Shown here piece by piece: positions 11,536 to 52,600 of a DNA stretch of 64,000 nt. Origin of the DNA: Yuukianura sp. NJ FZ-2021 (taxonomy: Eukaryota); NCBI GenBank assembly GCA_046563655.1, contig CM102283.1, positions 1,426,001 to 1,490,000 of the forward strand, written 5' to 3'. The notes under the pieces are model-generated. The model did not search any database. It was not told the origin of the DNA and saw only the letters and a program-made list of their open reading frames with translations. Position 1 is the stretch's first letter. Every line of letters starts with the position of its first letter. The position numbers and the translations under genes are program-made.

Positions 11536-12717
11536 CGAAGGAAGTCGCTGTTGTGAACGGTTTGAATTACCCTCCCGCCATTCCAACTACAAACCGGGAG
11601 TACATAGGTTCCAATTTGAGGAAGTTGAGTTAGTTGGGGAGTTCCATTAAGCATGAGCATTCCCCTCTGATTATGTCCAGAGGAACCCATCGTCGGAATG
11701 ACTTTATCCAAAGTGTTCTTGGACTTTTTCCATCCAGCGATGGGCATCACAGAGGCTCAAGTTGGGGCTTCATAAAAACAGTTATACAAACAAATGTGCA
11801 GAAACGGAAGGAAAGGGAAAGAGTCGTAGATAAGGAGAAAGCAGGGACGATGCCAAGGAGGGGGCAGGAGATGCACATACATGGAATTCATGGACGCACA
11901 GCTATGGACGGTGTCCAATCCACGGAAATGTAAACAAGAAAGTTTTGGTAATCAAGGAGAAAGTAGAGAAGATGCCAACGAGAAGAGAGAGACGACCATA
12001 ACATGACTTTCACGTACGGCAAATGACGCACAGAAATAAATTGACGGTTGCGTCTTAACAATTTATTTTATGTCATCCGTCCATAAGTGTCCTTAAATGT
12101 TTTGTCTTGCTTGGTCTTAAGTAACGGCCGGAAAGAGTCCGTTCAAAAATGTCCGGTAACTGATTATTACCAGCCTTTGGAGCTCAACTGACAAAAAAAA
12201 GAATATTACGGAATTTTTATGACACTGAATCTCAAGTTGCAACTTCTGCGCAGTTACAACTAATGAGACAAATTCAAAAAATGTCAAAAATGGATTCAAT
12301 TTCAAACTTCTCACTTTTCATAACAAATTGCTTCTGTTGGAACAGCTTTACTTGTGGTGAGAAAACCGGTTCAAAAACTGCTTACCAGTAAACCACGCCT
12401 TAGAATTCTTTTGAACAAATGACTCTTGCGTGTTTAAATGACCAAAATTTGTTACAACTGGACGTTTTTTGTTGAAATTTTTCTTTTTATGGTGAGGATT
12501 TTGTTGAAAATTAGGTTAAGATCTAAAAGATTTTTAGTAAAAATTTGTTTTTCCATAAACGACAACACCTATTTCGAAAGTTTCATGAAATTTTTGAAAT
12601 TTGTGGTTGTAAAGACTATTTTGCGTGAGTGTGATGAAGGTGAGTGATGGATGTGACACAAGCAACAGTCGGATTTTGTTTTTATGAAAGTTAAAATGAA
12701 TCACCTTTGGACTTTGG

Positions 12718-13226
12718 TGTGAGGAAGCAAAAGTAAGGTTGGCAGTGTTGTCCACTGCACCATGGCTACCTCCTGGCCCACTAGAGGTAAACAACCAGAC
12801 TTTGCTATCCTCCGTGTGACTGGCCTAGCCACACACCCCACAGGCCCCCGCACATTAAGACCTGGACCCCAGGTCTCAGCCTTCAAGATCCCACTATCAC
12901 ACTGGACAGACAGAGCACCTTATCAGTTGGGTCGGATCTGATAAAGTCTGGGAAGGGGAGTAGGCATCAGGGACGTAGCGTCTTTAAGACAGTTACCTAT
13001 TCTGCTGTCCAGCAGTCAATGGTCAACCCGGCTCAGGCTAGGGTATGACAAGAAAAATTTTCTTGGCCACGGGGGAATCGAAACCCGTCTGAGCCCCCAC
13101 ATGTGAGGAAGCAAAAGTAAGGTTGGCAGTGTTGTCCACTGCACCATGGCTACCTCCTTGCCCACTAGAGGTAAACAACCAGACTTTGCTATCCTCCGTG
13201 TGACTGGCCTAGCCACACACCCCACA
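12718..13226 (-). mobile_element. TRIM-like miniature non-autonomous LTR retroelement, 509 bp
   Basis: Two 125-bp direct repeats (12718-12842 and 13102-13226), each TG...CA and differing at one base. 4-bp TSD TTGG (12714-17, 13227-30). On the minus strand TGGGGGCTCAGACGGG follows the 5' LTR and resembles a tRNA-Pro PBS (TGGGGGCTCGTCCGGG). The 259-bp interior is non-coding. Confidence 0.85.
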
Positions 13227-13589
13227 TTGGACAGACCTTGCTAAAAGCATGTCGGTCAAAGGTTATTTTTTGAGGTCAAAATTTTGAAAATGAATAACAT
13301 CTCATTAGGTATTCAAACACTTTCAGCAGCTGAAAGAAAAGTACTTAATCAAAATCTAGTACAAAACTGCTGCGAACTTTCACCTTTTGTATTTTGTAGC
13401 TTTTTTGTTTCAAAAAAGTACTAAAACCTCTGAAGTCTTTTCCATTTATTTTTTCAACACTCACCAATAGATTTATGGTTTTCTAGCACCGCCAAAATTT
13501 GCTTGATTGGAAATTTTTTGAAAATTAAAAAACTTTTCTTTTCATTCGGGAAACATGCCGTGTTTTTATTAATTATTTTTTGTTTTTTC

Positions 13590-13609
13590 AGGTCATTGAC
13601 CTTTGACCT
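13590..13609. promoter_or_regulatory. Composite nuclear-receptor motif (perfect IR1 AGGTCAtTGACCT overlapping DR1 TGACCTtTGACCT) about 260 bp upstream of the AROM-derived ORF
   Basis: Motif read directly from the sequence; function is unproven. It also overlaps a polypyrimidine-CAG splice-acceptor-like site ending at 13591. Confidence 0.3.
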
Positions 13610-13864
13610 GGAACTGTATCAAGCTACTTTAATCCCAGCATGTTGGGATTTATATGGAACAGTATTTGGATAATTAAAATTTTAAACCACAAACCTCAAT
13701 CCTCTTAGATTTTTAATCATTTCCAGACCGTATCGCTAGAATGATTGACTTTTTGAAACCAGTTGCTAATTAGAAGTTGATCGATCAACAACTTCCTCAT
13801 CACACAAATTGTTCAACATTGCACTCCTTCTATAACAGCTTTTTTAGAAATTAATTCGTACAAC

Positions 13865-16291
13865 ATGAATTCAGACCAAGAGAAAATTGTGCTCGATGCG
13901 TTTCGTTTAGGCATTGCCTGTTCTGAACAACTTTTTAAACTTTTAGAAGAAAATGCCCGATGTATTTTGACTGGCGATTTGACAGCCGTGGAAGAGTTGA
14001 ATTCAGTTTTTCAAAAAGTTGAAAAAGCCACTGACGCTGTTACGGTTGAAAAAGTCCGAAATTTTGGAAAATCAATTGCAGTAATTTTGGAATCAAGTGG
14101 ATACTCGCCAAGGGACTCTTCTGCTTTGGGAATTCTAAAACAAGTTCAAATTTCGCGCCATCTCGGATTTTGTTCTCTCGTGACCTTGAACAGAGTGACG
14201 AGATGTTTGGCCAGCTACGGCTTTTCGACTCGTCTTGACCTCAGACGACCAGCAGTCATTTCTGCGCAAAACAGACAAAAAATGGCAATGATTCTGCGCA
14301 TTGGCCAATTTGACCTCGTGGAGGTCAATGACCTTTTCATTTCTCTGGTTCTGGAATCTCAGATTTCAGTAACTCCGAGTGGACCGATTCACTGTGCAAT
14401 GACAGTGCCTGGATCCAAGAGTATATCAAATAGAGTACTGCTGATGGCAGCGCTTGGTCATGGCACATGCGCAATCGAAGGCCTTCTGGATTCAGATGAC
14501 ATTGTAGCCATGCTGAAAAGTTTGGAACAACTTGGAGTTAGATTTGAATGGACTCAAGGGGGTCAAAGGTTAGTCGTCTACGGTTCAGACGGGAAATTCA
14601 AACAACCAGAACAACCACTCTATCTGAACAACTCCGGTACTTCGGCTCGGTTTCTAACGTCGGCGGTTTGCCTTGTTCAAAGTGAGAATGAAAACGGCGG
14701 GAAAGGCCGAGCATCTACGATTCTTACCGGAAATGCCCGAATGCAGGAAAGGCCGATCGGACCACTCGTTTCGGCTCTTCAGTCCAACGGTTGCGAAATT
14801 TCATACTTTGAAAATACCGGATGTTTGCCAATTTCCGTTGGCGCCAAAACTTTTTCTGGCGGGAAAGTTTTTATTGAAGGGAAAGTCAGCAGTCAATACG
14901 TGTCGTCAATTCTAATTTCGGCGCCATACGCTCAGACGCCGCTTACGCTTCAATTGGCCGAAGAAAATCCAGTTTCCCTGCCATACATTCTAATGACGGT
15001 GAAATTGATGCAGGATTTTGGAATCCCCGTGAAATTTCTGGCGCCAAACGAACTTCAAATTCCCACAGGCGTTTATGCCAATCCGGCTAAATTTTTGGTT
15101 GAACCTGACGCTTCTTCAGCTACGTACCTCCTTGCTATGGCAGCTATCACTGGTGGAGACGTTACTGTCCGGCATCTTGGATCGCAAAGTCTCCAAGGAG
15201 ACGCCAAGTTCTACGAAGCGCTGGTAGCAATGGGATGCGATGCTGTTCAAACTGAGCTAGAAACGAGGGTGCGTGGACCGACGGATAAGCGTCTGCGCAG
15301 TGTCAAGATTAACATGGAGACGCTGACAGATGCGTTCATGACAATCGCTGTCTTGGCAGCAGTGGCTGAAGGAAAAACTGAAATTCGGGGAATTACGAAT
15401 CAACGTGTCAAGGAATGCAACAGAATTGCAGTTATGGTGGAAGAATTGACTAAACTTGGAGTCAATTGTGGTGAGCTGGAAGACGGACTTTGGATAGAAG
15501 GAATTCAAAATTTTGAAAACTTCAAAACTCCCGCCTTCATAAATTGTCACGATGATCATAGGATTGCTTTGAGTTTTGCTGTCCTTGGTTCCAAAATTCC
15601 TGGAATTGTCATACTGGACAAAGAATGCACTTCTAAAACCTATCCAGGATTCTGGGATGACTGCAGAGCAATCCAGGTATCACTTTGCCCCGGTTCCAGA
15701 ATTTGCACAGCCAATCAAAACTCTTCGTCGATTTTCTCGACCAATGAAAACTTCCCGCCGACTTTCTTGGTGGGCATGCGTGGTTGCGGCAAAACGACTT
15801 TTGGCAAACTTGCAGCATCCGCCCTTGGCTTGTCGTTTCTCTGCATGGACCAAGTGCTGGAATCGCAATTCGGAGAATCCATTTCTTGCTTTGTTGAAAA
15901 ACACGGATGGGCGGAGTTTCGTGCCGAAGAAGAAAGACTTCTGCGCAGACTCGTGGAATCAAATCCAATAAACACAATAGTCTCTTGTGGTGGTGGAGTA
16001 GTTGAAACTCCAGGGTGCCTTGACCTGTTAGGTCAATGCCTTTTGGTCATTAACATCGAAAGACCTTGGGAAGAAGTCAAATTTACTCTTCTGCAACCAA
16101 GTGACTCTCGACCGGAACTTCCCGAACAACTTGAAGTCGTGTGGAATCGGAGACGCCCTTTATATAAAAAATGTTCCCGCTACGAATTTCGAACGAGTTT
16201 CGACAACTCGGCGGCAGTCATTGAAAAATCTACTCAAGATTTTATCCAATTTTTAGAAAAGTTGTTAGCAAACCATAAACAAATCGCTTAA
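13865..16291 (+). CDS. Truncated AROM-derived protein, 808 aa: degenerate C-terminal DHQ-synthase remnant + EPSP synthase + shikimate kinase (aro1/aroM-like, horizontal-transfer candidate)
   Basis: Intronless ORF with CAAC-ATG start context. EPSPS motifs: PGSKSISNR (14408), LNNSGTSARFL, RMQERPI, VSSQYVSS, EPDASSA, TDAF, RVKECNRI, DDHRIA, KTYPGFW. Shikimate kinase from ~15761: Walker A GMRGCGKT, FRAEE, SCGGG, SRP, RRPLY. The N-terminal ~170 aa align by eye to the AROM DHQS C-domain (NFGKSIA for NFGHSIGH; SRHLG...RCLASYGF). Domain order matches AROM. Confidence 0.93.
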   Translation: MNSDQEKIVLDAFRLGIACSEQLFKLLEENARCILTGDLTAVEELNSVFQKVEKATDAVTVEKVRNFGKSIAVILESSGYSPRDSSALGILKQVQISRHLGFCSLVTLNRVTRCLASYGFSTRLDLRRPAVISAQNRQKMAMILRIGQFDLVEVNDLFISLVLESQISVTPSGPIHCAMTVPGSKSISNRVLLMAALGHGTCAIEGLLDSDDIVAMLKSLEQLGVRFEWTQGGQRLVVYGSDGKFKQPEQPLYLNNSGTSARFLTSAVCLVQSENENGGKGRASTILTGNARMQERPIGPLVSALQSNGCEISYFENTGCLPISVGAKTFSGGKVFIEGKVSSQYVSSILISAPYAQTPLTLQLAEENPVSLPYILMTVKLMQDFGIPVKFLAPNELQIPTGVYANPAKFLVEPDASSATYLLAMAAITGGDVTVRHLGSQSLQGDAKFYEALVAMGCDAVQTELETRVRGPTDKRLRSVKINMETLTDAFMTIAVLAAVAEGKTEIRGITNQRVKECNRIAVMVEELTKLGVNCGELEDGLWIEGIQNFENFKTPAFINCHDDHRIALSFAVLGSKIPGIVILDKECTSKTYPGFWDDCRAIQVSLCPGSRICTANQNSSSIFSTNENFPPTFLVGMRGCGKTTFGKLAASALGLSFLCMDQVLESQFGESISCFVEKHGWAEFRAEEERLLRRLVESNPINTIVSCGGGVVETPGCLDLLGQCLLVINIERPWEEVKFTLLQPSDSRPELPEQLEVVWNRRRPLYKKCSRYEFRTSFDNSAAVIEKSTQDFIQFLEKLLANHKQIA

Positions 16292-16819: not shown

Positions 16820-17625
16820 CGCTTACATGTTTAGACCAATAACACAACAATGTCTCTTGACAGTTCATTAACTTAAGTTAAAGACTTCAATTTACGTAAT
16901 TTTGGAATGAAATATTAAGTTTTAGTAATTATTACTTAATAATTTATCTTAACAATTTCGTCCTTTAAGCAGAAAGTATTATACGCTGTCCAGTCAGCTC
17001 CCTACGACTACCATCCGTCATCATCATGATTAGTTATTGCCTGACCTGCGAATTTTGGTAGCTCTAACATATGCGAGCAATTGCTCGAGCAATTCTATTT
17101 CCGCATCGAGCGTTTGGACATCCATTCTGTCAATTTTGTACTTCATCGTACGAAGCTTCGTATCATAATCGACGGCCTGGAAAAGTGCTCAATAGTCATA
17201 CGCCGAAATTTCAAATTGGTTTTGTCGCTTTATGTAAAGTTACCTTCTTCGGGCTTTTCTCTGCAACGACAGCCATTGAACGGTTCGAGGTACTAGATCC
17301 TGCTTCAAATCAAATCTGCGTGTTCCTTCCTTCAATGTCTTCAAGTCATTGGGAAAATTTCTAAACCGTACAAGTACTTCAAGCCGATACAGACGCAAAT
17401 ATTTTGAAAAAATCCAACCTAGCTTAGCTTTACAACAACGCCAACGGTCAATACCCCGGTGGTCTCCCTCTGGCATTCAACTCTTGGAAATGGCCTTGCC
17501 AAATATAAAAATAAAATTCGAACGTCCTTCAAAGGATGAACGTTGTCCGTTGAAAAGTTGAAGGGACACATGCAACTGCGAGATAACTTCAAAGATACAA
17601 TCCTGCCATTTTATTCTTCAAATCC
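16820..17625 (-). pseudogene. Copy 1 of a tandemly duplicated small gene, deleted relative to copy 2
   Basis: Aligns to 17975-19275 but lacks the segments ~18455-18743 and ~18950-19155 of copy 2. Keeps the donor at 17243 and the terminal exon 17176-17030 (AVDYDTKLRTMKYKIDRMDVQTLDAEIELLEQLLAYVRATKIRRSGNN*). Confidence 0.6.
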
Positions 17626-17689
17626 AACTAAGGTCATAAAGGTATTTGAATTTCAATTAATGAAAATGGAAATCTAATTAATAGTAACT

Positions 17690-17946
17690 AATCGTAATTT
17701 TGAATTTCTCCTAAACCTTTCCTAAATAACCTCCATGTTTAATGAATAAATTGAATTAAGGAAGTTATTAAATAATAAATTTTTGAAGTTCCCCGCGCTT
17801 CCAGGCTCCAGTTCATTCGTTCCGTAAACCCAGAAACGAAATGCACTGCTCAAAACTTTGATGGATTACTTCCTTTACTGCATCGCCATCTGGTCTTGGA
17901 CTGGTGTAGTTTAAGTCCCTCCTCAGTAAAGAAGCCTTGATAACAT
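17690..17946 (-). pseudogene. Displaced fragment of the 3' end and 3' flank of the ZAD-ZF gene at 27953-29984
   Basis: Encodes KEVIHQSFEQCISFLGLRNE*, nearly identical to the C-terminus at 27953-28186. DNA similarity extends into the 3' flank (17690-17800 vs 27820-27930). The upstream part is frameshifted. Confidence 0.75.
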
Positions 17947-17974
17947 GAGTCATTACTAGTTTATTAGTTGACGT

Positions 17975-19275
17975 ACTTAAATGTTTGGACCAATAGCAGA
18001 CACAACCATGTGTCTTGACAGTTTTCAGACTTAAAGTTAAAGGGTTCAATCAACTTACGTAACTTTTGAATGAAATATTAAGTTTTAGTAATTATTACTA
18101 ATAAGTTATCTTAACAAATTCGTCGTTCAAGTAGAAAGCACCATCATTCAATGTCCAGCTTCATCAGCACCACCTTCATAGTTTGGTCCACCAAATCGGC
18201 GCATGCGCTGTGATTTGAAATGTTCGAACAATTGCTCGTAAATTTTCTCTTCTTTAAGAAACGTTTCGTTGTCCATGCGGTCCACCTTGAACTTCATGGT
18301 ACGAAGCTTCGTATCATAATAATCCACCTAGAAAAGCGCTCAATTGTCATAAGCCGTAATTTCAAATTGGTTTTGTCGCTTTATGTAACGTTACCTTTTT
18401 CGGGCTTTTCTCACTAGCGACAGCCATTGACCTGTTCGATGTGCTGGATCCCGCACCCGATTCCGTTGGGTTCCTAACTACACTTCTTGTTGGAATTTCT
18501 TCCAAGGATTGATGTATGTCTTCCCAGTCCCTAGAGAATTAATTCGACATTACTTCTACCTTTTACGTATGGCAATTTGAAAATGAAACTAAAACATAGA
18601 TTTTGCTCAAATGAAGACTTTCTTAGTCTTACATTAAAACTAATTTTACCTGTTTGTCCACGCTATGTGCAAAAATTATAACCTATTTTAGGATTATTAA
18701 GGATTTGCCAATCGGAAAGGTGAACAGAATCGCTGTAAACGTGTCAAATCAAATCTGCATGTTCCTTCCTTCAATGTCTTCAAGTCATTGGGAAACTTTC
18801 TAAACCGTACAAGTACTTCAAGCCGGTACAGACAAATTTTGAATAAATCCAACCTAGTTTAGCTTTACAACAACGCCAACGGTCATTACCCCCGGTGTTC
18901 TCCCTCTGGCATTCAACTCTTGGAAATGGCCTTGCTAAGTATAAAAACAAAATATTTTTTTAAGAATGAATTCCTTTATTTTCTTAGAATATAATTGTTT
19001 TACAAAGAACGTCGAACTGAGGAAAAAAGAAAGAATAGAAAAAAAAGAAGAAAACTAAATTTTGAGTTTCGAATTATAAAGTAAATTAAACATTTATTAT
19101 AAAGTATATAAAGTAAATTTATAACTTAATTTCAATAGATTTTTGGTTAATTTCAATAAAAGCAAAATTCGAACGTCCTTCAAAGGATGAACCTTGTCCG
19201 TTGAAAAGTTGAAGGGACACATTAAACTGATAGACAACTTCAAAGAACCAATCCTGCCAGTTTCTTCAAATCCAA
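17975..19275 (-). pseudogene. Copy 2 of the duplicated small gene; last two exons intact, upstream part not reconstructable
   Basis: Exon 18530-18395 (DWEDIHQSLEEIPTRS...EKSPKK|gtaacg) splices in frame to 18327-18148 (VDYYDTKLRTMKFKVDRMDNETFLKEEKIYEQLFEHFK...AGH*). Upstream frames contain stops. Confidence 0.55.
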
Positions 19276-20240
19276 CAAAAGTCGGGAATTTTACAGGAAA
19301 TTTCCTTTAAGACTCAACTGGCAATTTTTTTTTCAGTAAAAACGTTTTTAGCATGAAAATAACTGTATATTTTTGCATCAAATGACACGAAATACGGCAG
19401 CGTTAATTTTTTTTCTCGAGACATTGAGCATGCAGTGCTACTGCGGTTGAAAGAAAGTGTTTCGCATAACATAATTTTGGTGTATGATGACAAGGGGGGT
19501 TTAGAATTAAAAGTGAAAGCGAATACAAGTGAGAAGAGCTGGAAGAGGGGGAGGGGGGTTAAAGGGGGGCTATTGGCTGTGGTTTTCTCTGAATAATGAA
19601 TTATGAAATTCCAACTGGGTGCAGAGAAAGCAAAGGAAGGAGATCTGCAGATGGTGATAATGAGTCCACGCACGACACGACTTCAAAGCCACCGCCAGCA
19701 TCCAGCATCCCGTAAGAGCCAGAGAGGACGTGCCACAATTTCATAAAATTCGCGAGTTGGCCTCTCCCCTACACTTTCCGCTGCCACGGCCACGGTGTAG
19801 CAGCGTCATACATCATCCCAGTCCTAAGTGGAGCAGAGGATGCTTGGGTAGTCTCCAGAACCGCCGTTATGCTTTCGTGTCCACAACGATGTCTCCATCC
19901 GCAACTCAAAAATATGGAAATCAGAATCAAAGCCTTTAACCTCTCTGAGTCCGTTAGTGGTTTGGTCACAAGCTGTTCCCGCCTGGAAAAAAAATAGCAT
20001 CAACAACATAACGATTTTTGGATTTAAATAAACCACGAGAGTACTTTCTAACATGGCGCTCACATTTGCTTTAAAAAATTTGATTTTAACCGCAACGTCG
20101 TTAGGTCATATAATCTGTATTCCAAAAGCTAGAGTTTTTATAATGGAGTGTTTCGTTACGTGTTTCATTTGCGTTAGTAAATTTTAAAACTTCTATTGGT
20201 TAGAAACTTCTAGAAATACTGAAATAACGATTTTGGGTTA

Positions 20241-20784: not shown

Positions 20785-22100
20785 ATGTTGAAAGCCCTAA
20801 TTTTTGTTGTAGGCGTTAGCGTGGCCTTGGGCAATTCCGATTTTGAAGGTAGGCGAAGCTGATTTATAGAACATAACCTGACTTAATTTATAATAAAACT
20901 AATTAAGTACACATTATTTGAATCGCAGAATTCGACTCCAAGTCCGCGGCCGCCGCCCAGTGTGGAGCACAAAAGGACGTCGACCTGTCATTTTTCAACC
21001 TTAAAGTAGCTGAGGTCAGAACGCTTCTCGCCGACAAGCTTGAGAAATCTGCAGCAGAAGAAACCTTCAGTAGCCGCGATGCGTCAGCAAACTCCATTCA
21101 AACCAGCGTGTCCGAGAGCGGAATGGGAGTCGTCCGCAAAACCGTGCATTTCCCCAACAAAACCCGGGTTTTAGTCAAAGTCATGAAAACCAACAAGGCC
21201 ACAGGGAACTTTGCCACAGACTTGACCAGGACACCGGAAAACAAAGTAGACGCCAGTACCTCGGGCAACTTTGACTTTGGCGTTGACTTGCAAGCTTTTA
21301 CCAAAGATACGAACGTACACAGGACGGTCAGCGGAGGCTCATCACTGACAGTAAAGTCGTCAACTGCATTCATCCAGCTAGGTGATACCAAGGTTTTACA
21401 AACTAATGCTTCAGCATCGGCTTCCACTTCGGTTTCCTCCGTTGATGCTTCAGGATCCGGCGGCAAAGGCCGTAGCTTTACGGCACAGGCGACCGCAACC
21501 TCATCAGCTGACACGTTTATCTTTTCAAAGAAGTGTTTCATATCTCGGGTCAAGTTTGACTTTGGCATCAAAGTCGACGGTATACGTGTGACTGCTTCGA
21601 TTGCTGGAAAAGGCAACGGCCGTGTCTTTACTCGTGTTCTCGTTGCTAACAAAAATGGAACTTCGGTTATTCATAGCTACGCAGAATTTAAAATCCAAAC
21701 TGAGCTGGACATACAAGGAAAAAATAAGTCCTTAAACAAGTCCTTTCAAGGGACCCAAAATATAACTATTACTGCTCATACCGAAACGATTGTTCGGAAG
21801 GTCAATGGTGCTGATGAAAACAGCGGTAGGGTTTTTGTTGTTTCAAATGAAATCAAGCTTCGAGTGGGCGTCCAAACTGTCTTGGACAACGGACCTAAGA
21901 TAGTATCAAGCGGTGGTCAAATTCTGTTTAGAAATTCACGGTTCAATATTCCCGTCTCTGCCTCTACGTTTGAAAATAAGGATAATGGTGATGGATCCGG
22001 TATCATGACAGACAGCATTTTGACGAAACAGGAACAAGGTGACGACGTTTTGGTCAACAACGACTTTGTCAACAATGTTGTGTCATCAGCAATAAACTAA
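20785..22100 (+). CDS. Secreted, Ser/Thr/Gly/Val-rich, predicted beta-rich protein of unknown family, 411 aa, 2 coding exons
   Basis: Exon 1 20785-20848 (MLKALIFVVGVSVALGNSDFE, signal peptide), 80-nt GT-AG intron 20849-20928, exon 2 20929-22100 in frame with the listed 330-aa ORF. AATAAA at 22125. Confidence 0.85.
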
Positions 22101-27952: not shown

Positions 27953-29984
27953 TCATTCGTTCCTTAAACCCAGAAAGGAAACGCACTGCTGAAAGCTTTG
28001 ATGGATTACGTCCTTACTGCATCGTGCTGTGGACTTGGATTGATGTACGTTAAGGTCCTCGTTCCGTAAACCCAGAAACGAAATGCACTGTTCAAAACTT
28101 TTATGGATTACTTCCTTACTGCAACGACCTCTGCTCTTGGACTGATGTACTTTAAGTCCATCCTCAGTAAAGAAGCCCTGATAACATTTACTACAAAAGT
28201 ACTGGAAGTCTCTGCAATGTTCAAGTCTCGTGTGTCGTTCAAGAGCATCAACTGATGTGAGGAATTGGACGGAACAGCCTGCGACAGTACAGAAGTACCA
28301 TGACTCTGGTTCTGGATGTACGGTTTTCATGTGGAAATTTTTTAACGCCGCTGATGAGAACGTTTTTGGACAGTTGGGACATGGCAGTCTTGGTTTGAAA
28401 CTGGTGTTCAGCGATTTCACATCTCCTTTCCGTTTTCGATTTGCTGCTAACTTCATGCGGTCGATTAGTTGAGGAGTGTTGTTTTCCGAGTAAAACGGCC
28501 CATCACATCGATCAAGTTGTAACTTGGCTAGCTTCAACCGAAAGTATCCGTTCGGCCGCGTCATTATTCGTTCTAAAAGAGAAAGATAAAGCTTTGTAAT
28601 TGTATAACGTTTCGTTTCACTTAATACGAACACACATTTACCTAGGTATCTTGGAGCTGGATGGTCACCGCGATTCAAGGGTTGGTCTTCGTAATTTCGG
28701 ATTTCCATCACATCCGTTTGGTTTGTATGTAAATTATGCTGAGGTTGACAGAATTCTGCGGATTCATGGAATTAATATTATAATTCGAAATAATCCGACT
28801 AAAGGCTATGCTGATTGTTGAAAACGCTACCGGAATTATTTGCTGGTGTGTCATGAAGCCCCATCATGCCTAAACGATGGAGCCTGGTTGCAGCAGAACT
28901 ATGTTTTCTGGGTTGGTAGTATTTGTAGTATGCCACTTTCTTCTGGCATTGCTCACCGGTAACACGCAATCCAGAGATTTTTCCAATTTCCTCCGCGATT
29001 TCGTCATAAATATGAATCTTATTCGAATATTTGGCGCTGAGTTGACTACTTCGATCCCGGCAGAGTTTAAGCAAAAGTTCTAGATCATCGCCACTGAATC
29101 TAGTGTGAGAATTCTGAGGTGATGGAATGGTAGCATTATGATTGGACCAGTTGTCGTCGTCACTCTCTTGCTTGATCTGATCAACATGGTCGATATTATC
29201 ATTATGTTCGTCGCCAACGTCGTCATCGTTATGACCCTCCAGCGTATAATCCATTTCTGTGTCAGTATAACTTTGATTCACATCGTAGCCGTATCCATTC
29301 AATGACAGAATTGGCTCAACTGCCATATTGCTATGAAGTGCACCATCAATAATGTATGCAACCTGATGTGGAGTACCATTGAGTAGTAAACCTGAAACGT
29401 TCATACAATCAAAATGTTTCCTTATAATCCCAATTCTAGAAATTTTCTATAGTTATCGTTGTAGTTTATTTTGATTTTGCGTTTCTAGCTTACAATTAAC
29501 CAAGTCTTCGCGTAGGTCGATTGCCGACGTTTGGTTAGCGACAAAGTCCGACTCTGTGCCATGCTCCCCTGAGAAACTATTCTGGAAGGCCGTCCTAAGT
29601 TTGGATGAAACTTCCTTTACATTATTTTGAGTTTCAGCTATCAGCATTAGCAATTGGTGACCTTCTGCTGCAATTCTGCAGCAGCTAACACACAGTAGTG
29701 TTTGTGGTGGTTTTCCCTTCCAAATTGCAGTATTTCGAGGTTGGAAATTGAGGAGATGAGGTACCGATTCCAGTATTTCGGGAATCAGATGTTGCGAAAA
29801 CGAAGCATGGGCATAAATCGTTCGGCAGCATAGGATACACTGATCGTGATCGGAAGTAGTACCTCGTGGGTCCGCCAAGTGTCCTATGAAGAAAGAGCAA
29901 GTTCATACATATAAAAAAACTTCCGGTAAGGAAACAATTCAATAAGTGAAGTAACTCACCTAACTCTCTTCCAACTTGAAACAT
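27953..29984 (-). CDS. ZAD + Myb/SANT-like + 3 zinc-finger (2 C2H2, 1 atypical) transcription factor, ~569 aa (paralog B)
   Basis: Exons 29984-29960, 29883-29494, 29391-28831, 28755-28642 and 28572-27953, all phase-1 GT-AG introns. ZAD CILC...CVSC; Myb/SANT-like FSGDDLELLLKLC...IYDEIAEEI...VTGEQCQKK; fingers starting CPNC, CTVAGC, CSKC. Confidence 0.85.
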
Positions 29985-30330
29985 TCCTTATCACCGGCTT
30001 TCGATTCTCGATTCCAAAGTTCAGATTATGTCGCGTTTGAAAATTGAAATGAAGTTTAATTCTCCTCGAAGAAAGCAGAATTAACTTTAGTTTTTTACCA
30101 TTCGCTTCGTATACAAAAATTTGTAAATCGTATTACAAAAATACAAAACAAAAAAATAGTTAAAGGGACTGACTAAAACTCAGAATCCTCTGAATCAGAC
30201 GGTGGTAGGCTGAACGGGCAGCCTAATCGGCAGAATTAGCTGAACAATTTCGGTTTTTAAAATCGAGAATTCGTATTTTTCATTTTTTCCAAGTTGTCAG
30301 ATGCCGTCGATGACTTCTTAGATTTCGATT

Positions 30331-33075
30331 TCAACTTCTAGAGTCGCCTTGCCGACAAATGAGTTTGTGTCTGCCAAGGTTCTTCGTCGATGGAAATCCT
30401 TCGCCGCACTTTTCACAACGAACTCTTATTTGTGGGTCATGAACGACTTGAATGTGGGCTTTCAATGACTTCTTGCTGGCAAGGGACCTAGGACAATGTG
30501 GACACTGGACAGAAGGGACTCCACCATCGTGTCGCTTGAGATGGTCCTGTAGGTGTTGGTAGTATTTAAAACTGGATGGACATCGGTCGCACTGAAAATT
30601 CCTTTCGCCAGTGTGCTTGATATTGTGCATCCGAAGTAGTGCTGGACTATAAAAGTTAGCTTTACATCCCGGAAACGTACAAGGATATCTTACTATTGGT
30701 TGTTTTTCGGCAGTCGTATCGGGATGCTGCATCCGTACATGTCTGTTGAGGCCATCTATTCTGGCGTAAAATGCTCCACACACGGCACATGTGTATTTGT
30801 CTCTGCATTTGTCATGAACCTTTGCTTGATGATCTCTAAGGCCACCGCTGCGGGTGAACGCGACACTGCAGATCTCACAAACGAAGTTCCTTGCTAAATG
30901 TCGGTCCCTTTTGTGTCCAGAAAGTAATGCCCGGGTTCGGAACTTGAGGGGACAAGTATCGCAGCTGAAAGCTCGGAGCGATTCGTCGTGAACGATGGAC
31001 TCGTGGAATTTTAGAGCCGACTCGGTCAAGAACCCTTGACGACATGTGCCAATGTTGCAGAAGTACTGCAGGGCTCCGCCATGAACGTCTCTGACATGAT
31101 TTTCAAGGAGTAAAGGTGACTTGAATACTTCGGCGGAACAACCGTCGACTGAGCACGAGTACCGTTCTGATTTGCGGTGTACGGCAGCAACATGCTGAAT
31201 CTTTAGTGACTTTTCTGGAAACTTTTGCTGGCAGTATCGGCAAGAGTATTGATAATTACTACTACTGATATCTCTCGGATGTTCGGCTGCAACGTGCTGC
31301 ACCTTCTGTATCTTTTCTGGGAATTTCTGTGTGCAGTACCGACAAGAGTATTGTTTTCTCCTACCGGGTTCTCTCTTCCTCTTCTTTGATTCGTCCTCCA
31401 GTTCGCAAACTTTGAACTTGTTATGACTGGTTCGTTTCCTTTTCGGTTTGTGTTGAAGCACATTTTGATTCGACTTCGGAAGGATTCGGACAAGTTGTAA
31501 TTTCGCCAATTTCAGCCGGAACGATCCATTTGGTAGCATGACTGTACGTTCTAAGAAATATTGTTTTAGAGAGCTTTAGAATTTTTAGTTTCTAAAAGCC
31601 AAAAGCCAAACATAAATGCGAAAGCCCAAATGTTTTATGTCAGTAATACCTAAAACGCTTAGATCCTGCGCAGAAAGACTTTGTTCAAATTCGTATATCG
31701 GATCATAATCAGGATCCGAAGAATTATGTTCCTCCGGGTCATTACTATGCCTTATCCTCTCCTCAACTTCACCGTCGATTTCGTCCTTTTTCTCGTTTCG
31801 AAATATTAGATGTTTACCGGATTCTACGGAATAATGAAGCAATGCATTTGCATTTTATTAAAAACAAAGTGATTTGAGAGAAAGAATAAGTTATTCTGAA
31901 TAACTTTTGATTAGTAAACATACGATTAGAATGACCATCTTCAGCTGCAATACTCCTTTCACCAGCACCGCTATGTCTTGCTTTGTGTTTCAATTTCATG
32001 AGTTTTCTCCTGCATTGGTCACCGGTAACTCGGAGTGAAGTGGCTTTCCCAATTGCCTTTGCCATTTCTTCATAAATTGGAGCTTTATCAGTATGTTTGT
32101 CCGATAACTCACTGCTACGTTCATGGCAGAGTTTCATCAGAAGACCAACTTCAATGTCGCCGAACTTCAGACGGGGTTTTCTGGGAACAACGGTATCATG
32201 ACTCTTCAGTTTATCTTCATCCACAGTTTTTTCTTTTGTAATATCACCGTCGTCGACAGCGTTACTTGCTTCCGGCGTAATCCTGCTGTCGAACTGATCG
32301 TGATTATCCTCCTCCAGCGGTAAGGGTGAGTCTGGAAAACTTTGCGGCTCATCTTCGTCATGTTTCACCAACACAAGACTTGCTTCGGTAATAATACTGT
32401 TACGACTCGTAATCTCAGGAAGGTCAGTGTCTTGATGAAGATCAGTCTTGAACTGAAGGCCTAAAACGATTTACAATTACAATATACTTCACGTGATATG
32501 ACTGAATATCGATTATACTGTAGTTGAAGTTTCTATCCTTACAGTTAACCAACTCTTCTCGCAATCTTGTTGATGCAGTTTTGTTGCCCACAAAGGCCGA
32601 ATGCCTACTATGACCTTCTGATAAACTGTTGTTGATGGTCACCAGTACTTTTGATGTAACTTGCTTTATATTCTTTCGAGTTTCGACCAGTAGCTGTAGC
32701 AATTGATGTCCTTCTGCTGCGATCCTACAACATTGTCCGCAAAGCAGTGCGTTTGGTGAGTGCCCCTTCCAAATTGTTTTATTCCGAGGTTGAAAATCGA
32801 GGAGAAGAGGTACACATTCAATTACTTTTGGAATTAGTTGTGGAGTAGGAGCGTCAGAGAAAGTGGCAGAAATGAATTGGCAGCAAAATATACATTGATC
32901 ACAAGCATCGTGTTCTGGATCAATGGCAAGCCCGACTCCTGAAAAATAATATAAAAAAAAAAACAAAATTAGTCTTATTTTTCGATTACAATGAACTTAA
33001 TAAATACTTACCTGGGTCTCCAACTCCAACATCTTGCCGCCAACCGGTAACAACACTTGCTGCTTGGCTCGTCAT
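30331..33075 (-). CDS. ZAD + Myb/SANT-like + 11 zinc-finger (10 C2H2, 1 C2HC) transcription factor, ~796 aa (paralog A)
   Basis: Exons 33075-33012, 32938-32543, 32460-31924, 31823-31650 and 31550-30331, all phase-1 GT-AG introns. ZAD CIFC...CGQC; Myb/SANT-like FGDIEVGLLMKLC...IYEEMAKAI...VTGDQCRRK; HTGERNF linker. Exon structure is the same as paralog B. Confidence 0.88.
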
Positions 33076-49600: not shown

Positions 49601-52600
49601 AAATCTTTTGGCTAGAGGAATGACTGGAGAATGAATAGGAGAAGACAGCCTTTCACTTAACTTTTTCTTGTCATCAATAAAAATGGTCCATCGACCTCAT
49701 GAGCTTCTGCGCACAGTCACCGAACCATGTTCATCTGCGCATCTTCATCTCCAGCTGAGCAATTTCCACGCTTCGTTCCATCTGTGTAACTTCCTCTTTG
49801 CTTGACTTTGTTCTTTATCTCTCTTGACTTTCACTTTGTCTCACGAAAACGTGTGGAATTAGTTGTGATTAGTGGAAGGATCGAGCAAACAAATTACGAA
49901 ACTACAACTTTCTGGCGGGTAGCTTAAGAGAAAAATTGCGGTAACGCCTCAATCTAACATGAAAGATTATGATAACGTTTCACCTTAACTTGAAAAACTA
50001 AACTAAACTTATTAACCCAGCCTTAAGGAGTTTGGCTACAAGCCTTACCAATTACAACTTGAACTATTATGATAAAGTACTCTACGATGAAAATTTACGG
50101 TAACGCCGTTAAGTTAAAAACGGTTGGACAAATGCAAAACGCTATACCAAAATTCTCAGTTTCTTTAAAATTTCAACTCACGCTCCAAACCACTGTAAGT
50201 TTTTACCAAGGTCAAAAGTCAATTTCCGGCGGTCAATGGAGAAAACTAAAGTGCAATAGAAGATGCACCGAAGTTTAATCCAGTTTTATTGCGTCTGTTT
50301 AAACATTTGTTTGTAAGTTGATGTTCCATTACTCCTCTCCCTTCCTTCCTGGATGGTGAAAATGGAAGCTGGATTGCCCCTGCAAATGTCTTTTCGTTGC
50401 ATTTTACTGTCAGAGAGTTGTGTAAAATATTTCTTTTCTTCCCCCTCCGAATTGCAGTATACAATGCAGTTTAGCAGCTCCAAAGAATTTCCATTACGTT
50501 CACGTTTTCTTCAAAAAATGAAATCTCCCAAAACTAAGTTGCATGTGAAATCGGAATTCAATATTTTCTCCAACATGTCACTAAAAGTTTAGCCTTTTCC
50601 AAAAATTTCAAATCTTGAAAAATTATAAACAATTTTCTAACCGAAACTTTACATCAATCTAGTAAAACTTAAGTTAAAGTTAAACTCCGTGACATTTTTT
50701 TTTTCAAAATTCTGTAACTTCTGATCAAACAGTGAAAAAAAAAGGACTTCGAAACTTACTTTTTCATACTAGGGAGCTTGATTTGAGTAAAGTTTTGTAA
50801 AACAAAAGGAAATTTTAAACAAAATTGTGTGTAAAACAGGCGGGTTTTTTGGTAGTGTTGAAGTTAGAACAAAGGGTAATAACAGTTTGTTTGAATCTGG
50901 TCGTGAGTGTATTGCATATTGTACAATTCCGCTATTTGAATTCCGAAGCTGATCTTGCTTTTTCAAAAAAAAAAAAAAAAAAAACGAAGAATAGGCACTA
51001 ACAGTTATGCAAATAAAAGAACTCTTCCACTTTTCAAGTTCTGTCGTAGACACTCCAGTAGAATTTAGTCTAAGCACATAGTTTTAAAGGCAAAAGGTCA
51101 AAGGTCAAGTCTTAACAACTTAGCATATGCTGGATTTTGGAAGTGGAACATCAATAGTATACTTGATGCAGGTTATTTTTCAACTAAACATCGGTATGGT
51201 AGTGATCAAATTTTGTCAAAGGTCAAAGGTCAAGCTGATTTGAAACACTTTTAAACAAGTTTTTGCGTTTTTCTTGTGACTTTAGGTGTGACTGGAGTAC
51301 ACATCAATGACCTCCGAGTTCCCGCCATAATTCGAAATGGGACAGAGGAGACAGTGACGTTGGACTGTGACTATACACTGGAAGACCACGAGAGGGAGGG
51401 ACTGGTTGTGCAATGGTACTTTAACAACGAAGAGTCACCCGTCTTCCAGTGGATTCCAACACAGAGGCCACAGGATTTGGGGATTCTGCGCGGGAAGCTC
51501 AACCTCAACTACCAAGCGTCATCTGACAGATACAAAATGTACAGGGCACTTCAAATACAGCGCCCTCATACCAATCTTAGCGGAAAGTACTTATGCAAAG
51601 TGTCAACCATTAGCAACGACGCCTACAAATCTGGAACCATGCTCATCTACTGTAAGTTCACAACAATTCTTTCAATTTTTCAAAAAAAAAAAAAAATAAT
51701 AATAATTCTTTAAAAGTATGTACGTCTCGAGTTTTAAAAAAGTTACGCGATTTGTTAATTTTGGTGAGTTTTGCTCAACCGCAATCGCAGCATAAGCAAA
51801 ATACTCGGCAAAATTTTCTACTTGGGAGAGCAAAATTTTAAATTTTTGGTTCAATCCAAAAACTTGGCAAAATGTTCAACTTGGTAGAGCAAAATTTACA
51901 ATTTCTGGTTCAATCAGTATATAGTTACTCCCCCCCAGTTGGAAAACGATGCCAAACCACGCTATGGTATAGTTACTCCCTCCGGTTAGCAGAACTTTTT
52001 TTCTTACTTTTGAAATCTCCCGCTGAAGAGGCTTATGCTGAAATTGTGATCCTTATGAACTTTGAGCCTGGAGCTGAGACTTGAGTTTTTGGAATAAGGT
52101 TTTGTGTGGATCAGCATAATCTTCAAAATCACTTAAGTGGTTTGACTCCAGTCATCCAGGAAGCGCCAGATACCTGACAAAGGACTTGAGGACTCAATTT
52201 AAACTTAAGTTTAGAAGGAAATTGGGACCATCAAAGGACATATGATCTTGCAAAATTGAGTTTGTGCACCACTTCACTTATGACAATCTAGAAAGCCGTA
52301 TCATTTTGTTAGCATGCGGTACGGTTGTGGCTGCACAAAACTCTTCAAATCAGTTCGCACATTTGTCAAATTAGGTTAGGCAAAAAAAAAATTAGAGTGT
52401 TTTGAAGTTTTTAGTTATGCATTTTGAAAAATCTTAGTTTTCATCTTTGTAAATCTTTGTAAGTGGAATTTTTGAAATGTGCACTGGAAATTCTATAGTT
52501 TTTTCTTATCGAAATTTACTTTTCAGAATTTTGTTTTCGCTAAAAATTTGCGAGGGGGAAATGACTTCCCGTTAAAATTTTTTTTTAGCAGAAGCACGAA

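Follow-up and report, generated by a model that had tools for sequence, protein, structure and literature searches.

An AROM gene of oomycete origin, selectively pruned, in an arthropod genome

AROM proteins and the locus in Yuukianura

The rule that animals have no shikimate pathway underlies both the status of aromatic amino acids as essential nutrients and the argument for the safety of glyphosate. It appears as a textbook rule in PMC3018139, and an apparently intact, long-conserved pair of 5-enolpyruvylshikimate-3-phosphate (EPSP) synthase (EPSPS) and shikimate kinase domains in an arthropod chromosome would be a direct and cheap test of it. The 64,000-nucleotide stretch of Yuukianura sp. 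NJ FZ-2021 analyzed here (hereafter the window; assembly GCA_046563655.1, contig CM102283.1, positions 1,426,001 to 1,490,000, with coordinates counted from its first letter) carries such a pair on the + strand, in a single open reading frame (ORF) that runs from an ATG at 13865 to a TAA at 16289–16291 with no internal stops and encodes an 808-residue protein, P0001. This gene is a real, selectively pruned, oomycete-derived fragment of pentafunctional AROM, the protein in which dehydroquinate synthase (DHQS), EPSPS, shikimate kinase, dehydroquinase (DHQase) and shikimate dehydrogenase (SDH) are joined in one chain.

In all of our trees the nearest named clade is that of the oomycete AROM proteins (Bremia lactucae P0127, Globisporangium polare P0282, Albugo candida and Aphanomyces spp.), with which P0001 shares the domain order DHQS-EPSPS-kinase; unlike them, it is without the N-terminal half of DHQS, DHQase and SDH, its DHQS ligands are replaced, and it lies on an arthropod chromosome. 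The fungal AROM or Aro1 proteins (C. thermophilum, 6HQV; C. albicans, 7U5S and 7U5T; A. nidulans, 1DQS) have the same folds, and the residues named for their EPSPS and kinase are kept in P0001. Unlike P0001, C. albicans Aro1 has no domain deleted and its DHQase alone is inactive, as described in PMC9074039.

Two further kinds of protein combine the same activities. Plasmodium PFB0280w, a probable bifunctional EPSPS/shikimate kinase, is AROM-like and has the two activities of P0001 in recognisable form, but it is reported to be hard to align (PMC3333189), comes from a parasite and involves no transfer to an animal. The AroA-kinase fusions P0207, P0220 and P0234 (about 600–620 residues, probably bacterial) have EPSPS followed by kinase and nothing after, as in P0001; unlike P0001, they carry no DHQS remnant, and at 34–39% identity they fall far outside the AROM clade. 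Shikimate-pathway genes have been claimed by transfer before, for Nematostella vectensis (Starcevic 2008, as cited in PMC3018139), although there the genes are described as coming from bacteria and a dinoflagellate and a bacterial symbiont was suspected in the data. In the literature within view, which did not extend to subscription papers and preprint supplements, we found no description of an arthropod gene derived from AROM. The supplements of the Folsomia candida genome paper gave no match to five shikimate-pathway terms, and those of the Orchesella cincta genome paper no pathway match in the part of the text searched.

The DHQS remnant and the two retained enzymes

The features of the gene are as follows, with the evidence for each in parentheses.

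13865 to 16291, + strand: single-exon ORF of P0001, a DHQS C-half remnant with EPSPS and shikimate kinase, oomycete-type and AROM-derived
13865 to 14359, + strand: C-terminal helical half of DHQS, predicted to be catalytically dead, residues 1–165 (conserved columns, profile score, model)
13895 to 13906, + strand: D11/R14 replacing the conserved E/K of the ExxK motif (conserved-column alignment)
14060 to 14116, + strand: decayed zinc site, K69/V73/P82 for H271/H275/H287 (alignment to 1dqs)
14114 to 14239, + strand: conserved helix bundle of the remnant, residues 84–125 (identity to P0002)
14360 to 15664, + strand: EPSPS domain (step 6), apparently intact (PF00275, conserved columns)
15755 to 16264, + strand: shikimate kinase domain (step 5), with Cys660 in DxD (PF01202, conserved columns)
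13839 to 13847, + strand: candidate acceptor-like pyrimidine tract and AG, 18 nt 5' of the ATG (sequence)
13571 to 13591, + strand: candidate second acceptor-like tract (sequence)

Pfam matches in P0001 are confined to EPSP_synthase (residues 170–598) and SKI (residues 639–791), with none in residues 1–165, and the closest solved structures are fungal AROM proteins, aligned over residues 65 to 802. Among alignment columns with conservation of 90% or more across 55 intact AROMs, P0001 retains 97 of 100 for EPSPS and 18 of 19 for the kinase, compared with 8 of 28 for the C-terminal half of DHQS and 0 of 36 for its N-terminal half. With profiles and tblastn, none of the six frames of the 64 kb yields a DHQS N-half, a DHQase or an SDH (best E 0.4 or worse), a search that covers 13.8 kb upstream and 47 kb downstream of the gene. 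The claims of an earlier reading of this DNA (hereafter the original prediction) that the ORF stops right after the kinase, and that the three activities that make shikimate are lost while the two that consume it are kept, are thus borne out by the domain searches and the column counts, and the window holds no exon that would supply the missing domains. The five-domain chain DHQS-EPSPS-kinase-DHQase-SDH is not found in P0001, whereas its descent from AROM is evident from domain order and phylogeny. To judge from these alignments, P0001 would resemble the middle of AROM in its working, yet it is neither a pentafunctional AROM nor, in its remnant, a DHQ synthase.

The remnant itself matches A. 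nidulans DHQS (PDB 1dqs) at E 7e-07, and a custom profile of the DHQS C-half made from 55 AROMs gives it 49.7 bits (E 2e-14), with the same profile giving 176–237 bits for seven listed AROM pieces in which the domain is mostly intact. In the 1dqs alignment H271, H275 and H287 correspond to K69, V73 and P82, with NFGKSIAV beginning at 14060 and SPRD at 14105 as had been proposed, and the ExxK motif (presumably E194/K197 in A. nidulans, a numbering taken over from the original prediction) corresponds to D11/R14 when aligned through E197/K200 of the Bremia AROM. The NAD-binding N-terminal domain that a DHQS would have is absent, and the metal ligands and catalytic histidine are replaced. The alignment, the profile and the loss of all N-half columns agree with the description of the N-terminal ~170 residues as the C-terminal half of DHQS only, and with the reported replacement of the metal-binding and catalytic histidines.

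Decay has not been uniform along the protein. Between P0001 and its relative P0002, identity is 21 of 45 in the first helices and 5 of 34 (15%) in the zinc-site segment (residues 46–83), rising to 29 of 42 (69%) in the helix bundle, 307 of 435 (71%) in EPSPS and 91 of 167 (about 54%) in the kinase. For comparison, 45 intact AROM pairs at a similar EPSPS distance, which are not independent of one another and in which the segments were matched approximately, average 73% (65–83) in the zinc-site segment, 70% in the bundle and 44% (37–53%) in the kinase. The catalytic segment has been released from constraint and the bundle is still constrained. Since the zinc-site segment has drifted while the bundle stayed as conserved as EPSPS, the remnant is apparently a selected scaffold, with the helix bundle as the probable structural reason for retaining it. 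The column counts, segment identities and control pairs together uphold the view that the decay was selective and not random.

An AlphaFold2 model of P0001 (14-row alignment, no templates) has a pLDDT (predicted local distance difference test) of 84.8, and its remnant is mostly helical at 79–92 except in residues 121–140; the fold from a two-sequence alignment reaches only 32. When the full model is fitted to 7u5t, the DHQS/EPSPS structure from C. albicans, 377 residues match at 2.8 Å (model range 1–615), which we read as the remnant and one EPSPS subdomain fitting as a unit. The counterpart of model residue 1 is residue 181 in C. albicans Aro1 and residue 191 in C. thermophilum AROM, positions that we take to lie near the boundary between the two DHQS halves. 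The EPSPS domain of AROM is reported to need an attached DHQS domain (Moore and Hawkins 1993), and a scaffold role fits this.

Folding or dimerisation had been suggested as the reason for keeping the remnant. A structural role fits both the model and the pattern of identity, whereas dimerisation is doubtful because DHQase is gone and the lost N-half is the DHQS dimer surface. According to PMC9074039, AROM dimers form through the DHQS and DHQase domains. A homodimer prediction for residues 1–168 scored 0.01 against a mark of 0.32, and we have weighed it neither way.

The retained enzymes are well preserved. PF00275 is matched at 371 bits against a cut-off of 22.8, over profile positions 2–415 of 417, and the EPSPS of the modelled P0001 fits 3nvs with a Z of 37 and a root-mean-square deviation of 2.1 Å over 424 residues. 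D489 and H565 of EPSPS align to D715 and H796 of C. albicans Aro1, and D662 and R749 of the kinase to D890 and R980, these four being residues named for Aro1 in PMC9074039. The catalytic and substrate-binding residues of EPSPS thus appear to be kept, and its domain and fold appear complete. The kinase (PF01202, 103.7 bits) keeps its P-loop (G637–T645), D662, R686, the GGG at 709–711, R749 and R763. The first Asp of its DxD motif is replaced by Cys660, with Cys also in P0002 and Asn in P0005, and this Asp is listed as a Mg2+ ligand (Asp32 of M. tuberculosis; PMC2593004). With a Cys in place of a metal-ligand Asp, shikimate kinase activity of P0001 is likely but not certain.

Ancestry and host context

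Trees were built on EPSPS and kinase with IQ-TREE (28 rows chosen from 62), FastTree (62 rows) and a mixture model (25 rows). P0001 forms a clade with P0002 and P0005, two proteins from JGI (Joint Genome Institute), with IQ-TREE support of 100/99, and this clade is nested inside the oomycete-type AROM clade with the same support; the mixture-model tree (99, 99) and FastTree agree. Monophyly of P0001 with fungi is rejected by the approximately unbiased (AU) test (p-AU 0.002). The EPSPS of P0001 is 58–61% identical to those of oomycete-type AROMs, and no animal-named homologue is present in the best 120 of 917 matches. P0002 (801 residues, 59% identical, branch distance 0.63) shares the start and end points of P0001 as well as the loss of the metal ligands, and P0005 ends after the kinase, though its N-terminus may be incomplete.

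The named oomycete AROMs have five domains (Bremia 1545 residues, Albugo 1596, Globisporangium 1537). Matches of oomycete type about 1250 residues long had raised the idea of a donor AROM already without SDH, which we rejected on finding that two clusters hold full NCBI members of 1537–1596 residues together with pieces of 270–312 residues; the ~1250-residue proteins are most likely gene calls cut short at an intron. With named relatives of five domains and the shorter matches explained as shortened gene calls, none of the five activities is likely to have been missing from the donor lineage. A second truncated group of oomycete type, the Logan proteins P0019, P0020, P0021, P0023 and P0026, also ends just after the kinase. 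In four of them the N-terminus is present, with a DHQS that is of full length but decayed and has lost the NFGHSIGH histidines. Free trees keep this group apart from the P0001 clade, although the AU test does not reject one common origin (p-AU 0.46); of the derived EPSPS and kinase states shared by P0001 and P0002, 10 are shared with P0005 and 3 with the decayed group. It may represent a similar process caught halfway in some other animal, an event that ran in parallel, or a lineage of microbes, and an Atlas search on it returned bacterial DHQS clusters only. Further relatives of P0001 were sought in a first metagenome scan (none in 116 stretches), in a second (80 loci at 29–48% identity, no orthologue) and in a short-protein search with residues 1–215 (88 matches, no further orthologue, 8 inspected).

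A separate observation concerns brown algae, Nannochloropsis, Vaucheria and Tribonema, which have DHQase-SDH proteins (P0294–P0296, P0300, P0309, P0333) related to the C-terminus of oomycete AROM; their sequences suggest an AROM fission in ochrophytes.

The gene sits in an arthropod genome, with animal neighbors and host-like composition. Neighboring ORFs match C2H2 zinc fingers, Myb/SANT-like domains and an immunoglobulin (Ig) domain in Pfam, and arthropod members make up most of the best Atlas cluster for the Ig protein (score 0.96).

51255 to 51713, + strand: exon of an arthropod-type Ig V-set protein (Pfam, Atlas)

The GC content at third codon positions (GC3) is 0.41 in the gene and 0.36–0.55 in seven neighboring ORF stretches. 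No RNA run is among the listed sequencing runs with this sequence, which does not bear on expression. All four bins of the gene are covered at flank-like depth in four DNA runs that come from two samples and two studies: in run X1 the gene has 60–93 and the flanks mostly 25–90, and in X5, which comes from the second sample and study and also covers all four gene bins, the gene has 6–14 and the flanks mostly 1–10 (contig depth being a coarse measure, and one sample possibly being the source of the assembly). Composition, coverage in two samples and placement in the trees agree with the original prediction that the gene is not contamination. Two bins with raised depth and loose contig ends at positions 14023 and 15504 first hinted at a second gene copy, an idea that we set aside: the ends lie on short AT-rich stretches and are read as chance matches.

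Explanations for the pruning, and other elements of the window

Phylogeny, context and composition show an old horizontal transfer of an oomycete-type AROM into an arthropod lineage. The kinase of P0001 would make shikimate-3-phosphate and its EPSPS would make EPSP, as the intact active sites suggest, and a separate chorismate synthase would turn EPSP into chorismate. Steps 2–4 would have been lost here because other putative acquired genes of the same genome, one for a DAHP synthase and another derived from AROM, would supply steps 1–4, leaving two AROM-derived genes pruned to complementary halves, one for steps 2–4 and the other for steps 5–6. The deletion would have ended close to where the two DHQS halves meet, with the C-half kept as a non-catalytic scaffold that presumably packs on EPSPS. 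Redundancy with partner genes would account for the loss of exactly these three activities. In the same way the inactive DHQase domain of C. albicans Aro1 is accounted for by a DHQase encoded elsewhere, a compensation described in PMC9074039. We lean, with some reserve, toward this division of labor, in which P0001 converts shikimate made by partner genes to EPSP for chorismate synthase. That there is a complete working pathway drawn from several microbial donors, comprising DAHP synthase, the two complementary AROM halves, chorismate synthase and chorismate mutase, we put forward only tentatively.

If P0001 is as described, it would show how a protein of five enzymes can be reduced once transferred while one dead domain stays on as a scaffold, and if the complementary gene works, nature would here have divided a multi-enzyme neatly into two halves that complete each other. 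A complete pathway would allow the animal to make chorismate-derived compounds, perhaps including precursors of phenylalanine and tyrosine, from sugar, and would place the target of glyphosate in its own genome; the value of P0001 lies in being the piece for steps 5–6 of such a possible whole pathway.

Several observations weigh against the division of labor and the picture of the gene on which it is built. No protein with DHQS, DHQase and SDH but without EPSPS occurs in the best 120 of 904 matches, the one exception being a Pythium model with what looks like an internal deletion; a gene of fungal derivation, or one split by introns, would not have ranked among those 120. The ORF at 13865–16291 has no intron, and none of the contig pieces listed bridges the gene and its flank. 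The first DxD position is Asp in 54 of 55 intact AROMs and in 310 of 323 aligned kinases. The intact AROMs in the alignment behind the model may have supplied the remnant-EPSPS interface that it displays. Finally, given relatives with the same end point, the pruning may predate the transfer.

The original prediction had instead read the pattern as selection, after transfer, for the use of exogenous shikimate. The lost and kept activities do split exactly at shikimate, and an animal that takes shikimate from litter, fungi or gut microbes would need steps 5–7 and could let steps 2–4 decay, much as in Plasmodium, where besides a probable EPSPS-kinase protein the sole enzyme then identified was chorismate synthase (PMC3333189). 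Complementary pruning predicts the same split equally, however, so that an external supply is not needed to explain it, and we regard scavenging as an unlikely cause of the pruning, although dietary shikimate could still be used; in one variant, redundancy caused the pruning, the gene for the upper pathway has since died, and the lower half has come to depend on shikimate from food. The timing in that prediction is not borne out, as relatives of unassigned host end at the same place as P0001. This bears on a further possibility, that an unsampled oomycete or related protist already had a protein of dead DHQS, EPSPS and kinase, which the animal inherited with at most further trimming. The five Logan proteins, which end after the kinase within the oomycete-type clade and for which a single origin with P0001 is not rejected, speak for it, and if microbial they would be the truncated microbial architecture that the original prediction named as fatal to its own account; but all named oomycete relatives either have five domains or are gene calls cut at an intron, free trees do not unite the two truncated groups, the shared derived states tie P0001 to P0005 far more than to the decayed group, and that group could itself be animal. 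A donor pruned beforehand seems to us distinctly unlikely.

The remaining alternatives have less in their favor. With a near-universal Asp, listed as a Mg2+ ligand in PMC2593004, replaced by Cys660, the kinase might be impaired, so that P0001 would be an enzyme of one activity, or one with a changed substrate, its kinase domain being structural or having an altered metal site. The other 18 conserved kinase columns are kept, though, the kinase identity to P0002 (53%) stands at the top of the range of intact pairs, and the 13 kinases of the set without this Asp include, besides P0001 and its two nearest relatives, ten others; we judge this improbable. An artefact, whether contamination, a recent non-functional insertion or missing domains in distant spliced exons, could draw on the absence of an intron, on an acceptor-like site 18 nt 5' of the ATG in a compatible phase and on a tblastn match of the Bremia AROM that extends 8 codons past the ATG. 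Acceptor-like AGs are indeed present where they had been noted, at 13590–13591 and 13846–13847; the latter would splice an upstream exon in phase 1, whereas the former is usable only for a non-coding exon or a further intron because in-frame stops separate it from the ORF, which opens at 13781. An upstream exon could in any case not restore DHQS activity, since the metal ligands are gone. Host-like GC3, coverage in two samples, the limited identity of EPSPS to oomycete-type AROMs, an open frame of 808 codons with intact active sites, a relative with the same ends, and the lack of any missing domain over the 13.8 kb upstream and 47 kb downstream all argue against an artefact, which we consider very improbable.

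The window contains other elements of minor note. A 509-nt miniature element of long terminal repeat (LTR) type at 12718–13226, 640 nt upstream of the gene, has 125-nt direct repeats that are 99% identical, TG...CA ends, a TTGG target-site duplication and, adjoining one repeat, a tRNA-3'-like stretch ending in CCA; it is polymorphic, since contigs without it (joint 12713 to 13227) occur in 3 of 4 runs. No tRNA and no Rfam match were returned. An ecdysone-element-like palindrome at 13590–13602 was considered and set aside, as the palindrome occurs 6 times and a related direct repeat 13 times across the window, once inside the ORF. The counts are 13 sites with at most 1 mismatch for TGACCTTTGACCY, against 0.26 expected (for example 13597, 22224, 49184, 51095 and 56971), and 6 sites for the palindrome RGGTCANTGACCY, against 0.29 expected in the window; both sequences, which we take to resemble nuclear-receptor elements, may be a genome-wide motif.

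Downstream of the gene, 16887–19356 is a tandem duplication in several blocks, 83–97% identical, whose copy number may be polymorphic, since a contig skipping 17549–19356 is present in 4 of 4 runs. A Ser/Thr/Val-rich open frame of 392 codons at 20922–22100 on the + strand has no Pfam match and is covered by long read contigs. Duplicated genes at 27953–32996 on the − strand combine a Cys-rich N-terminal exon with Myb/SANT-like and C2H2 zinc-finger domains and include a 300-nt repeat at 70%, and a decayed piece of their 3' end recurs at 17817–17914.

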